Source: Parasutterella excrementihominis (lineage in GTDB: Bacteria > Bacillota_I > Bacilli_A > RFN20 > CAG-826). From it: a stretch of 64,000 nt of DNA. The notes beneath the pieces were generated by a model, which was not told the origin of the DNA, searched no databases, and saw only the letters and a program-made list of their open reading frames with translations. This document shows, piece by piece, positions 12,380-15,415 of the stretch (position 1 is the first letter of the stretch; every line of letters starts with the position of its first letter). The DNA lies in NCBI GenBank assembly GCA_963614595.1, contig CAVECL010000002.1, forward strand, positions 5,689 through 69,688, written 5' to 3'. The position numbers were made by a program, and so were the translations under genes.

Positions 12380-15300
12380 TTGGCGGATAATTTCCCCGTG
12401 AAGCCCAGAAAAGAGCAAAAGACAAGCACTCAGCGGGTGATATCTTTGTCAATCAAAGAGGGGAAATGGCTTTCGGTTGTCTATGATTCCCGCAAAGAGA
12501 ACAGAGACACTTCGTTTTGGTGCTATGTTCGGGACATCGACCCGAAAACAAAAATCATTCACTGCGATATGTATAACGATTTCAAGGGAACCGATACCCT
12601 TGAATCCATACCTTTGCAGTTCAACCGAATCAAGTCGGCGATTCTTTTGAATTTCACCACGGGCGGAATAAACAAGGAACTGATTCGCAAAATCAACGCA
12701 GATCTCCCTTCTTTTGCTTGGCTTGAATATGAAAACTTCGACAACAACATCCTGCGTTACCTTGAGCTTTGCTGTCAAATGGACTCCGATCCCTGCATCA
12801 AAGACACCGCTTTGGTGGATGGGATTGATTCAGACGTCTTGAAAGGAAAAGGCGCTTATAAGCTTGATGATTCTCAAATGAAGCAAATGGGGCAATGCGT
12901 TAGGAGGAATGAACTTGAGGAATGGAATTCCCGTTATAGCGAACTGGCCTTGTCCCGCCTCTCCATCGATATCCAGAACAAGAAATACATCGTCGCTTAT
13001 GAACCATTGGCTTTCTCTCCGAAAGATAAATCCATCAAGAAAGTTGGAGGCTTGCGTTTAAACCCCTCTTTCCTGATCGAAGGAAAGAAACATTCTTTAT
13101 CTACCTATACCGAGATGTCGGCCTCGGAATTCTTGGATTTGCTAAGCAAGAACTTCGTCGAAGCTTCTGAAATCATCCGCGAATCGCTTAGACCAAACGA
13201 GATAATCGATACACGCCCCAACTTCTTTTGCCTTTCAAGGGAATATCAAATCGATTTCGCAAGTCTTTTTGAGAAGATTGAGCAAAGATGGGCGAAGGGC
13301 GAGCTTGAAGCTCCTTTGAGGGCGTTCTTCGGGAACACTTCCTACGCGGATAATGGCAAAAGGAAGCCGGGGGTTGTCTTGTTCGATACCCATGTGAACG
13401 CCGATCAGGCTTTCGCCATCTACAGCGCGCTCAAAAACAAAGTCACCTATGTTCAGGGGCCGCCGGGGACGGGGAAGACTTGCACGATTTTCAACGTTAT
13501 TTTGTCTTGCTTCTTCGATAGCAGAACCGTTTTGGTCTCCACTAACAACAACAGGCCATTAGACGGCATTGCCGCGAAACTTCATTTTTCAGACGGGGGA
13601 GGAGAAATCCCTTTTCCTTATCTTCGCCTTGGAAATAGGCAGGTGAACCAAAATGCCCTAGAGGCTTTGAAGGATTATTTCTCCTCATCATACAAGCCTT
13701 CCTTAACGCAAGACGAGTTAGACGAATTGAGGAGAAAAGCCCTTGGGAAGAACAAACAAGCCGTCGATAATCTCACCTCTTTCATGCAACGGAAATCCCT
13801 CCTGGATAACTTGTCTTTCCTAGACAAGGTATCCTCGTTGGACGCCAAAAGGAAAATCATCGCCAAAGAAAGAGACATCATCGAGAAAAAGCTGGCCAAA
13901 CTTCCGGAAATCGCGGAGAAAGAAATCATCGCTAGCTTCGTATCTTTAAGCAGCGACAAAGACGCTCTCGCTTATCTGAATGAATCCTCCCTTCGCCACC
14001 TGTCGCGTCTTTCTTCCTCGGATTTTGACGAGCTGCGGGCAATCGCGTTCAACGAGAACGCGGATAGCCGTCTTACGATGTTCAATTCCTTCCTAAGGGA
14101 TGACAAGAACATCGCGCTCCTCACCACCGCTTTCCCCATTCTTTTTACGACAAACATCTCAAGCGAGAAACTTGGCACCGCGGATTTCCTTTTTGATTTG
14201 GTGATCATGGACGAAGCGGGTCAAGCGGATGTGGCGAAATCTCTTTTGCCAATCTCTCGCGGCAAATCCCTTCTTCTTGTCGGCGACGAGGATCAGCTTC
14301 TTCCGGTGATAGACGTTGACCCGTCTGTGAATGAGTCAATCCGCAAAGAATACGAAGTGGCCGAGACTTATGACTACATAAGCAATTCGATATTATCGAC
14401 AATGAAAACCGCCGATAAAGTCAGCAACCGCGTTTTGCTTCGCTCGCATTACCGCTGCGGCAAGAGAATCATCGGATTCAGCAATAGCTATTTCTATGGC
14501 AAACAGCTGCGCATAAGCCCCGCTCTTGCCGAAGGCGAGGTTGCTTTTTGCCCTTCTTATAACAAAGTGAAGGCCCCGTTAAAGAATCAGAACTTCCAGG
14601 AGGCGGCAAACGTTGTTTCTTATGTAGAAAAGTATGGGGAGAAGGATTTGGCCATCATCACCCCATTCGTGAATCAGGCAAGCCTAATCAATCTTTTGCT
14701 CGCTAAAAAAGGCATTGAAGGAGTGAAGGCTGCGACCATTCATTCCGTTCAAGGGGACGAGAAGGGAACGGTTCTCATCTCGACGGGCATTTCCTCTTCT
14801 TCCTCTAGAAAAACCGTTGAATGGCTCAATAGCCATGGCGAGATCGCCAATGTGGCGACTTCCCGCGCGAAAAAGAAACTTGTCGTTTTTGGCGATCAGG
14901 TTTCTTTGAAAAAGATGAGCACGGGGGATAGCGTGTGGAACGCCCTTTTCGAATACTGCGGTGCCAAAGGGAAAGTCGACGTTATTCCGCCTAGTTACGA
15001 AAACGCGGAGATAGGCAAAAGCAACGGCAGTCTCACCGAGGACGAATTCTATAAAACGATTGCCCATATCGTCTCGGTTCGAGGGAATATATCCGTGGTC
15101 AGGAACGTGCCCATAAAAGATGTTCTCGGAGAGGAATATAATGGGGATTTGCGGGAATTTGACTCCGTTATCTACGCAAAAAACCTCTTTTCCCCCAAGA
15201 AGCCGATCTTCGCTTTCGAGTTCGATGGAGGCGAGCATTACAAGGATGTCGGCCGCATGAAGAGCGACAAGAAGAAAGCGAAAGACTGCAAAGCGAAAGG

Positions 15301-15415
15301 CCTTCGCTTGATCCGCATCCCTAATTCTTACTGCAAAGATTACGAATTCCTGAAGATCCTGATCGAGGATTATTCGAAGGATGTCAGCGAAGGCGAACAG
15401 CTCACGTTGTTTTGA
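12380..15415 (+). CDS. SF1 (Upf1/Dna2-like, AAA_11/AAA_12-type) helicase with an unknown N-terminal region and a C-terminal Vsr/DUF559/DUF2726-like endonuclease-fold domain
   Basis: Helicase motifs: Walker A VQGPPGTGKT (nt ~13456-13480), motif II VIMDEAGQA (nt 14201-), LLLVGDEDQLLPV, LRSHYRCGKRIIGFSNSYFYG, ATIHSVQGDEKGTVLIS and NVATSRAKKKLVVFGD. The C-terminal ~130 aa, REFDSVIYAK...PIFAFEFDGGEHYKD...KKKAKDCKAKGLRLIRIP, match the Vsr/DUF559/DUF2726 pattern. The start codon is uncertain: TTG at 12380 or the in-frame GTG at 12398. Confidence 0.8.
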   Translation: MADNFPVKPRKEQKTSTQRVISLSIKEGKWLSVVYDSRKENRDTSFWCYVRDIDPKTKIIHCDMYNDFKGTDTLESIPLQFNRIKSAILLNFTTGGINKELIRKINADLPSFAWLEYENFDNNILRYLELCCQMDSDPCIKDTALVDGIDSDVLKGKGAYKLDDSQMKQMGQCVRRNELEEWNSRYSELALSRLSIDIQNKKYIVAYEPLAFSPKDKSIKKVGGLRLNPSFLIEGKKHSLSTYTEMSASEFLDLLSKNFVEASEIIRESLRPNEIIDTRPNFFCLSREYQIDFASLFEKIEQRWAKGELEAPLRAFFGNTSYADNGKRKPGVVLFDTHVNADQAFAIYSALKNKVTYVQGPPGTGKTCTIFNVILSCFFDSRTVLVSTNNNRPLDGIAAKLHFSDGGGEIPFPYLRLGNRQVNQNALEALKDYFSSSYKPSLTQDELDELRRKALGKNKQAVDNLTSFMQRKSLLDNLSFLDKVSSLDAKRKIIAKERDIIEKKLAKLPEIAEKEIIASFVSLSSDKDALAYLNESSLRHLSRLSSSDFDELRAIAFNENADSRLTMFNSFLRDDKNIALLTTAFPILFTTNISSEKLGTADFLFDLVIMDEAGQADVAKSLLPISRGKSLLLVGDEDQLLPVIDVDPSVNESIRKEYEVAETYDYISNSILSTMKTADKVSNRVLLRSHYRCGKRIIGFSNSYFYGKQLRISPALAEGEVAFCPSYNKVKAPLKNQNFQEAANVVSYVEKYGEKDLAIITPFVNQASLINLLLAKKGIEGVKAATIHSVQGDEKGTVLISTGISSSSSRKTVEWLNSHGEIANVATSRAKKKLVVFGDQVSLKKMSTGDSVWNALFEYCGAKGKVDVIPPSYENAEIGKSNGSLTEDEFYKTIAHIVSVRGNISVVRNVPIKDVLGEEYNGDLREFDSVIYAKNLFSPKKPIFAFEFDGGEHYKDVGRMKSDKKKAKDCKAKGLRLIRIPNSYCKDYEFLKILIEDYSKDVSEGEQLTLF

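Follow-up and report, generated by a model that had tools for sequence, protein, structure and literature searches.

A predicted WYL-domain helicase-nuclease of gut and rumen bacteria is a candidate stand-alone defence protein

Introduction

What does a large helicase fused to a nuclease do among the surface and signalling genes of a gut bacterium? The question is raised by a 1,011-residue open reading frame (ORF) in a 64,000-nucleotide stretch of DNA, hereafter the window (contig CAVECL010000002.1, positions 5,689 to 69,688 of the forward strand, assembly GCA_963614595.1, filed as Parasutterella excrementihominis and placed by GTDB in CAG-826 of the Bacilli). An earlier note, made without database searches, had read this ORF as an orphan three-part helicase-nuclease with an unrecognisable N-terminal domain, and had proposed that it may be an undescribed single-gene variant of nuclease-helicase immunity, with a hint of horizontal origin.

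Single-gene nuclease-helicase defence is known from staphylococci, where Nhi nicks and unwinds DNA and its activity is tied to the phage single-stranded-DNA-binding protein, i.e. to single-stranded DNA (ssDNA) replication intermediates (PMC12904381). In type III-B CoCoNuT systems, the UPF1-like helicase CnuH, which carries a coiled-coil-containing helical insertion, is fused to a Vsr-like PD-(D/E)xK endonuclease (PMC11090510). Fusions of WYL domains to superfamily 1 (SF1) helicases were listed in 2014 (PMC4012209), and ssDNA is the switch for the WYL regulators CapW and PafBC (PMC11662680, PMC11804915).

Here, we resolve the parts of the protein, follow its family across bacterial genomes, and weigh what it may do. 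Its most likely function, to which we give a probability of about 0.55, is that of a stand-alone candidate defence helicase-nuclease in which a WYL domain would bind ssDNA and load or license the enzyme. The gene is a well-defined candidate and not a discovery, and it is both less novel and less well founded in the window than the earlier note held.

Domain architecture

From N- to C-terminus the protein consists of a predicted WYL domain, a module without known relatives, an Upf1/Dna2-type SF1B helicase with a variable insertion, and a Vsr/DUF2726-type endonuclease, and the three-part anatomy first read by eye is confirmed. The features, in window coordinates, are:

12380..15415 (+): whole ORF, 1,011 aa (ORF list; start-region sequence; 20-homologue alignment)
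12425..12661 (+): predicted divergent WYL domain, aa 16-94 (model, Foldseek, hhalign to BrxR)
12662..13312 (+): family-specific alpha/beta module, aa 95-311 (confident model, with a predicted local distance difference test score, pLDDT, mostly of 80-96 in this block; invariant residues)
13313..14311 (+): helicase lead-in and RecA-like domain 1, aa 312-644 (AAA_11 at 1.8e-26; IGHMBP2 aligns from aa 304, the sister family from aa 312)
13457..13480 (+): Walker A, or motif I, GPPGTGKT, aa 360-367, with K366 (invariant in 20 homologues)
13652..14149 (+): variable, probably helical insertion in RecA-like domain 1, aa ~425-590 (poor conservation, many indels; composition)
14210..14224 (+): motif II, DEAGQ, aa 611-615 (invariant in 20 homologues)
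14387..14899 (+): RecA-like domain 2 (AAA_12, aa 670-840), with HYRC 690-693, TIHSVQGDE 786-794 and VATSRAK 825-831 (AAA_12 at 9e-18; invariant residues)
15038..15349 (+): DUF2726/Vsr-like PD-(D/E)XK nuclease domain, aa 887-990 (DUF2726 in 33/36 C-termini; 3r3p profile; model and Foldseek)
15155..15277 (+): putative active-site stretch, E926-F-D928 ... E947-x-D949-G-G-E952-H953 ... D963-x-x-K966 (invariant residues)

The N-terminal region gave no Pfam, NCBIfam or PDB-sequence match. When aa 1-337 were modelled with AlphaFold2 from 32 homologues (pLDDT 84, predicted template modelling score 0.80), aa 16-94 took the form of a helix (H17-27) followed by a five-stranded Sm/SH3-like barrel. The Foldseek matches of this model in the PDB, none of them below E = 0.01, are headed by the WYL proteins CapW, PafBC, BrxR and DriD (probability up to 1.0, E 0.014-0.3, 70-100 columns, ~3 Å), with other Sm/SH3-like barrels lower in the list. 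WYL (PF13280) is also the Pfam family that the N-termini of the family touch most often, if weakly (3 of 32, best E 0.14); the window protein itself has no match to it at E ≤ 1. A single-sequence hhalign comparison against BrxR was not significant, and only a deeper profile-profile comparison worked: when an alignment of 196 family N-termini was set against BrxR from the pEFER BREX locus together with 120 BrxR homologues, family aa 16-94 aligned to BrxR 135-208 over 74 columns with 88% probability (P = 3e-6), covering the Pfam WYL domain of BrxR (135-203). Decoys, consisting of one reversed and 20 column-shuffled BrxR alignments, reached at most 1.2% probability.

On model and profile alignment we take aa 16-94 to be a divergent WYL domain, and the WYL/SH3-like resemblance that had been guessed by eye is borne out. 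The description of the first ~330 residues as unrecognisable accordingly falls for this part and stands for aa 95-311, which Pfam, a PDB sequence profile and Foldseek against PDB and BFVD all left unmatched; aa 312-337 belong to the helicase, since they align with IGHMBP2 and the sister family described below. Likeness to CapW, PafBC, DriD and bacterial Pif1 suggests a nucleic-acid or nucleotide ligand for the WYL domain of the family. Because nearly all complete carriers are ~1000 aa long with the module at the N-terminus, we regard the N-terminal module as family-specific and not as a promiscuous sensor.

The helicase core is matched above threshold by Pfam AAA_11 (aa 338-644, 1.8e-26, 93.9 bits) and AAA_12 (aa 670-840, 9e-18, 65 bits), each against a cut-off of 27, and its sequence matches among solved structures are IGHMBP2, Upf1/Nam7, Dna2 and Sen1. 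Motifs I, II, III, IV, V and VI are unchanged across 20 full-length homologues of 38-91% identity, with G360-T367, D611-Q615, G635/D636/Q639/L640/P642, H690-C693, T786/H788/Q791/G792/E794 and R829 invariant, in agreement with the full Upf1/Dna2-type motif set originally called. We assign the helicase to the Upf1-like SF1B group, and 5'-to-3' translocation is predicted from its homology to Upf1, IGHMBP2 and Dna2.

An insert between Walker A and motif II, described at first as K/E/L-rich, is present but has a different composition. Residues 425-590, rich in L, S, A, K and D, show the lowest conservation of any part in the 20-homologue alignment. They fall within the span of the AAA_11 match, which covers model positions 1-254 of 257, so most of their length is normal for AAA_11 and the insertion exceeds the family norm by ~50 residues. 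Its site is analogous to that of the coiled-coil helical insertion of CnuH (PMC11090510).

For the C-terminus, a fold of the Vsr/DUF559/DUF2726 endonuclease type had been proposed, and this assignment stands. The window protein reaches 15.7 bits against Pfam DUF2726 at full length (E 0.013) and 22 bits as an isolated domain, where the cut-off is 24.7; among 36 diverse family C-termini scanned in isolation, 33 match at E ≤ 0.01 (best 3.8e-10), with DUF559 or MTES_1575 matched in a few as well. Searched as a profile, the C-termini match a single solved structure of relevance, I-Bth0305I, a homing endonuclease of the Vsr-like 'EDxHD' type (3r3p, E 0.0038). Modelled with AlphaFold2, aa 862-1011 (pLDDT 77.5) show the alpha-beta-beta-beta-alpha-beta core that is typical of restriction-endonuclease-like nucleases, and the best Foldseek matches of this model, all of them weak and none at E < 0.01, are TnsA, AgeI, I-Bth0305I, NGO0050 and EcoRI (probability 0.3-0.96, E 0.04-0.4). 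Residues E926, D928, E947, E952, H953, D963 and K966 are invariant in the 20 full-length and 36 C-terminal sequences, and by analogy with Vsr/EDxHD nucleases their acidic and histidine members are putative catalytic residues.

The ORF is uninterrupted at 12380-15415 (+), stop codon included, and every peptide string quoted from it at the outset is present in the translation. Mean column identity is 57% in the full-length alignment with 20 homologues. Its listed start is TTG 12380, one of three possible starts together with GTG 12398 and GTG 12437. No Shine-Dalgarno-like sequence precedes the TTG; in close homologues the start lies six residues further in, at the position of GTG 12398, and in more distant ones it lies near GTG 12437. 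Residues 1-12 have pLDDT <50 in the AlphaFold2 model.

A cross-phylum family without a partner gene

In a search of 5.8 billion proteins we found >120 homologues of ~1000 aa that cover 96-100% of the query at 38-95% identity, and a profile of the N-terminal 337 residues retrieved 457 representative clusters at 50% identity, 297 of them at E ≤ 1e-10. Among species-representative genomes, 490 candidate stretches encode relatives; in the best 80 of these the gene is full length wherever the contig permits. The word orphan, applied to the gene at first, is therefore wrong as to relatives, which form a large family conserved end to end, and right only as to a partner gene. When all ORFs within ±8 kb were clustered across the 80 loci, no gene family recurred beside the helicase beyond close relatives, and on this basis we regard the gene as stand-alone.

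The family is rare and patchily spread across phyla. Carriers include gut and rumen Bacilli (metagenome-assembled genomes, or MAGs, of the RF39/'Enteromonas' type and Anaeroplasmatales), Clostridia, Bacteroidales, Flavobacteriia/Cytophagia and Melainabacteria, and one is an isolate, Flavobacterium stagni WWJ-16. The clades of a neighbour-joining tree roughly track taxonomy. Copies from Melainabacteria/Gastranaerophilales (L027, L052) are nested inside a clade of Clostridia and Bacilli, and this nesting points to transfer between phyla that live together in the gut. Public records give the proteins generic names ('ATP-dependent RecD-like DNA helicase', 'AAA family ATPase', 'DNA helicase', 'hypothetical protein'), and the literature on DUF2726, helicases and defence, and on domain-centric defence screens, yielded no description of a WYL-helicase-nuclease family.

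Some record titles are unreliable as taxon names, as with the MAGs titled 'H07xxx-L1_cleanbin' (L002, L003, L004, L012). Gene order matches that of the window in records titled Paludibacteraceae, Erysipelotrichaceae and Lachnospiraceae, and one titled Escherichia coli groups in the tree with copies from uncultured Mollicutes UMGS237 and Bacillales UBA743 and has the same arrangement with Tex upstream. The most abundant variant (L178 and L179; a 90% cluster of 1973 sequences) breaks in two independent assemblies at about 13010-13200, 150-200 bp past the helicase stop, and the breaks suggest repeated or strain-variable downstream DNA.

Neighbourhoods were annotated with Pfam on ten diverse contigs outside the window's genus, a sample that favours long contigs and gives raw counts without a genome background. 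Seven of these ten lineages place the gene in a defence island:

L090: Qat-like KAP/QatB/QueC/TatD, PLD-DEAD-DUF3427 helicase, AbiJ_NTD3 kinase, integrases
L089: RE_LlaJI/AAA_5, nSTAND3, DUF2779, DUF4379/MTES_1575
L092: RloB/AAA_21, SLFN-g3 helicase, MazG-like, MrcB_N/NOV_C
L084: N6_Mtase/Eco57I, SLFN_AlbA_2
L091: PLD-DEAD-DUF3427, NUDIX, GIY-YIG
L094: DEAD helicase, PLD-DEAD-DUF3427, NUDIX, SLFN-g3 helicase, MazG-like
L095: SIR2_2, SNF2/DUF4391/methylase/ResIII

The other three are the lineages closest to the window, and one of them (P0018) pairs the gene with a NERD-HRDC gene and has housekeeping genes on either side. Pooled scans of the immediate neighbours and of genes two to three places away also contain matches to NERD, Fic, DUF4143, an SLFN-type helicase, type IV restriction, AbiU and PbeA.

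Two modules recur in these surroundings. A small NUDIX (+NUDIX_4) gene stands beside a ~930-aa PLD-DEAD-Helicase_C-DUF3427 protein in L020, L050, L090, L091 and L094 (also L021, L022 and L178); its order and orientation relative to the helicase-nuclease vary, and the pair may form a two-gene module of its own or be a partner only now and then. The NUDIX gene lies directly upstream on the same strand in L020, L021, L022, L090 and L178. We did not adopt it as a partner, because these loci are phylogenetically clustered and because it also accompanies the PLD-DEAD-DUF3427 helicase. The second module combines a MazG-like pyrophosphatase with a Schlafen-group-3-type helicase (L033, L092, L094; also L019 and L038), joined in L092 and L033 by an exonuclease-BRCT protein.

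Integration at tRNA genes was considered and set aside, since of 40 loci only 3 have a tRNA or tmRNA gene within ~300 bp of the homologue, each a possible integration hot spot:

L030, 9631-9705: tRNA-Arg
L047, 9346-9733: tmRNA
L061, 13105-13193: tRNA-Ser

A sister family shares the enzymatic core under a different N-terminus. Its plasmid-borne example, WP_154395897.1 (902 aa; Parabacteroides distasonis plasmid NZ_OY725763), has an AAA_11-AAA_12-DUF2726 core (DUF2726 at 2.2e-10) and is 26% identical to the window protein over aa 585-970 and 34% over aa 312-433; over aa 312-956 the identity to the sister family is 25-27%. Annotated just as 'AAA domain-containing protein', it adjoins SNF2, N6-methylase and TIR genes. 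Members of this ~900-aa family likewise occur in defence-island contexts, but a shorter, unrelated N-terminus of ~185 aa replaces the WYL domain and the aa 95-311 module. In L056 the two types stand back to back, a 907-aa sister-type gene at 760-3483 (-), 37% identical to the plasmid protein, and a 1005-aa WYL-type gene at 3870-6887 (+), with unrelated N-termini. A common enzymatic core with alternative N-termini, in places encoded next to each other, is what one would expect of modular defence proteins.

Comparison with known systems

The best scores of the helicase core are with helicases of defence systems, namely MkoC, MkoA, PDC-S37, Hhe, ProA and PLuB. Through this core only, PADLOC matches MkoC, MkoA, PDC-S37, Hhe and GajB; the NCBIfam matches (IGHMBP2, ProA, PLuB, Hhe) are all far below their cut-offs. 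We compared the protein with the systems that it most resembles and conclude that it is similar to Hhe, Nhi and the helicase-Vsr fusion of CoCoNuT III-B but is not a member of Hhe or CoCoNuT III-B, and probably not of Nhi.

Hhe (Gao et al. 2020; NF042953) is, like the window protein, a stand-alone Upf1-like SF1 helicase (AAA_11/AAA_12) with a C-terminal Vsr/DUF559-type endonuclease. Hhe proteins are ~1800-1900 aa long, however, with an N-terminal DUF4011 and a nuclease of the MTES_1575/DUF559 subfamily, whereas the window protein has 1011 aa, a predicted WYL domain with an unmatched module, and a nuclease of the DUF2726 subfamily. Membership was rejected: the score is 70 bits where the equivalog model asks for 2000, the match is confined to aa 600-752, and DUF4011 is missing.

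The CnuH-Vsr fusion of CoCoNuT III-B, compared here by description only, shares an Upf1-like SF1 helicase with an insertion and a Vsr-like nuclease. CnuH has near-invariable McrB/McrC-type CnuB/CnuC neighbours and OB-type N-terminal domains (PMC11090510), in contrast to the partnerless window protein and its predicted WYL N-terminus. With no gene family recurring beside the helicase across 80 loci, McrBC partners are missing; AAA_5/LlaJI genes were seen only in L089, 7-10 kb away. Membership was likewise rejected.

The best PADLOC matches are to Mokosh, whose helicases are Upf1-like and whose type II combines helicase and nuclease in one protein: MkoC of type II (PDLC03924) matches at 1.6e-42, with aa 604-845 on model positions 670-949 of 1136, and MkoA of type I (PDLC03920) at 2.9e-39 over aa 342-845. 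The Mokosh effector is a PLD nuclease, whereas the Pfam scan of the window protein found no PLD domain; with the match also confined to the helicase core, type II membership was not accepted.

Nhi is a single-gene nuclease-helicase like the window protein, in which the order is helicase then nuclease. Bari et al. in 2022 are said to have placed the nuclease of Nhi N-terminal to its helicase, and we know of no WYL domain in Nhi. No PADLOC model named Nhi matched, and Nhi is not among the 12 PADLOC families that did.

The proposal of an undescribed variant of nuclease-helicase immunity holds in so far as we found no description of this family. It does not hold as a claim of novelty in kind, given Hhe and CoCoNuT III-B (PMC11090510) and the earlier WYL-SF1 fusions (PMC4012209).

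The locus in its own genus

Five species of the window's genus have the gene in one and the same slot: that of the window and four species-level relatives (L001-L004) whose helicase is 81-91% identical. The ratio of nonsynonymous to synonymous substitution rates (dN/dS) is 0.06-0.07 against L001, L004 and L002, with dS similar to that of flanking genes, and is 0.02-0.10 in each of four protein regions wherever dS is unsaturated. GC content is 47.1%, and 58.1% at third codon positions (GC3), where the 37 window genes average 48.8±2.6 and 58.8±4.5. The supposed AT-richness (42-44% GC in spot counts) is thus not seen, both values lying <1 SD from the window mean. A horizontal origin, which that composition had seemed to hint at, was rejected on the native look of GC, GC3 and dS, and the idea of a variable island or recent import fails against one stable slot in five species. 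In this genus the gene is old, vertically inherited and functional, a resident and not a mobile gene.

The setting among surface and signalling genes is as first described. Neighbours in the window include a carbohydrate-binding protein, a fucosidase-like protein, three lipoproteins, a GGDEF protein, a histidine phosphatase, an M13 peptidase, FucI and Tex, and the remaining window genes are housekeeping genes, a UvrD/PcrA helicase among them. Synteny with the window is gone in all loci at ≤65% identity, except that Tex lies directly upstream in L010, L012 and the P0018 loci (L086-L088). In metagenome scans of a collection without the window's genus, the upstream lipoprotein had no match, and fucI matched other genera only (≤81% identity), with no synteny and no helicase.

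Other features of the window are:

6109-12347 (+): three consecutive lipoprotein-like genes of 720, 477 and 879 aa, each with a signal peptide and Cys and no Pfam match
15464-16633 (+): GGDEF diguanylate-cyclase protein with a multi-pass membrane N-terminus, beginning 49 bp past the helicase stop
31876-33627 (-): second GGDEF diguanylate-cyclase protein
49139-49243 (+): thiamine pyrophosphate riboswitch (Rfam RF00059, 57.3 bits, gathering score 54.3), just upstream of ORF 49312-49986 and the sole Rfam family above threshold in the window

The lipoprotein-like genes are the fastest-evolving of the syntenic block (65-86% identity to L001/L004, dN/dS 0.08-0.18).

Discussion

How might such a protein work? 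In the defence function that we favour, the WYL domain would bind single-stranded nucleic acid, as in CapW, DriD, PafBC and bacterial Pif1, and the triggering ssDNA would arise in phage or plasmid replication or through DNA damage. Binding would load or release the helicase, which could then move 5'-to-3' along the strand using ATP, and the C-terminal nuclease would nick or cut the threaded DNA, so that the replication intermediates of an invader would be destroyed, as proposed for Nhi and Hhe.

The idea of single-gene immunity gains circumstantial support from the missing partner in 80 loci, the patchy cross-phylum spread, the islands in seven of ten annotated lineages, and the island contexts of the sister family; the arguments from the window itself, composition and a variable island, fail. 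Several observations weigh against a defence role. Around the gene, in the window as in its four closest relatives, stand genes for lipoproteins, a GGDEF protein, a phosphatase and a peptidase; the slot does not change, base composition looks native, and dS is the same as in the flanking genes. Purifying selection is uniformly strong, with no fast-evolving sensor region, which is atypical of arms-race genes. The lineages P0015 and P0022 have housekeeping contexts, and the pooled neighbour scans are heterogeneous, with many transporter and metabolic genes. Beyond the helicase core the protein falls outside every PADLOC and NCBIfam model, and IMG/VR, INPHARED phages and PLSDB plasmids hold no full-length family member, a result on which an origin from phages or plasmids was also rejected. 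What the WYL domain would bind, whether the helicase would run on DNA or RNA, and the activity of the nuclease are all predictions from homology.

The conserved slot, native composition, divergence in step with the flanks and strong purifying selection in five species all speak for a genome-maintenance enzyme, a Dna2- or Pif1-like 5'-to-3' helicase-nuclease that would act on ssDNA flaps, stalled forks or damaged host DNA with the WYL domain as an accessory ssDNA binder. The housekeeping contexts of P0015, P0018 and P0022 fit such a role, as does the presence of Dna2 among the solved-structure relatives of the core. Bacterial Pif1 offers a precedent as an SF1B 5'-to-3' helicase whose WYL domain is an accessory ssDNA-binding module (bioRxiv 10.1101/163188; PMC9964779), and the WYL regulators PafBC and DriD sense DNA damage (PMC11804915, PMC13004042). 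Pif1, proposed to serve genome maintenance, differs in belonging to the Pif1/RecD family, in its C-terminal WYL domain and in having no nuclease domain; the window protein is Upf1-like with its predicted WYL domain at the N-terminus. A maintenance enzyme would also sit oddly with a family that is rare (~460 clusters at 50% identity), patchy over three phyla and conserved in no large clade examined, that loses synteny beyond ~80% identity, and that lies in defence islands in most annotated distant cases. The paralogous core with a swapped N-terminus adjacent in L056 is typical of defence modularity, and the window already has a UvrD/PcrA helicase. We consider genome maintenance unlikely on balance, and still the most serious competitor to defence.

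A variant of the defence function would direct it at RNA, with the Upf1-like helicase acting on phage or aberrant RNA and the C-terminal domain cleaving RNA or an RNA-DNA hybrid. The RNA helicases Upf1, IGHMBP2 and Sen1 are among the closest solved relatives and Mokosh helicases are the best PADLOC matches; CoCoNuT CnuH helicases, the Vsr-fused form included, are predicted to target RNA (PMC11090510), and WYL domains are related to Sm-like domains (PMC4012209). The characterised nucleases of the matched folds (TnsA, AgeI, EcoRI, I-Bth0305I) are nevertheless DNases. Vsr, too, is a DNase. The characterised WYL ligands in CapW, DriD, PafBC and Pif1 are ssDNA, and the Upf1-like clade includes DNA helicases (Dna2; IGHMBP2 also acts on DNA). 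Sequence is indecisive on this point. An RNA-directed function is in our judgement improbable.

A selfish or mobile-element gene, either a homing-type endonuclease-helicase or the remnant of an integrated element without host benefit, is very unlikely: the homing endonuclease 3r3p is the best solved-structure sequence match of the nuclease domain, tRNA or tmRNA genes directly flank the gene in 3 of 40 loci, integrases lie close to it in L090 and contigs break just past the gene in L178 and L179, but no integrase, transposase or repeat is consistently alongside, phage, viral and plasmid collections lack full-length members, inheritance in the window's genus has long been vertical with strong purifying selection on all domains, and a 1000-aa three-enzyme architecture is unlike known homing endonucleases.

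Returning to the defence function, we tentatively raise a more specific form of it, at well below even odds. In known systems the WYL domain controls transcription factors; here it may be a built-in allosteric switch on an effector enzyme, such that phage ssDNA or another small nucleic-acid signal, received by the WYL domain and the unmatched module, would license the helicase-nuclease in a one-protein, sense-and-destroy form of immunity. If so, the sister family would mark the helicase-DUF2726 core as a chassis for different sensors.

If the protein is instead a repair enzyme, it would represent a Dna2-like activity in bacteria that carries its own ssDNA sensor, a less surprising outcome. If it is a defence system, it would be, to our knowledge, the first case in which a WYL sensor is coupled directly to an effector of the helicase-nuclease kind. 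WYL sensing during infection would become testable in one protein, with the sister family permitting sensor swaps. A compact single-gene helicase-nuclease would then be added to the anti-phage repertoire, with most of its carriers among uncultured Bacillota and Bacteroidota of gut and rumen, in which there are few experimentally validated defence systems.

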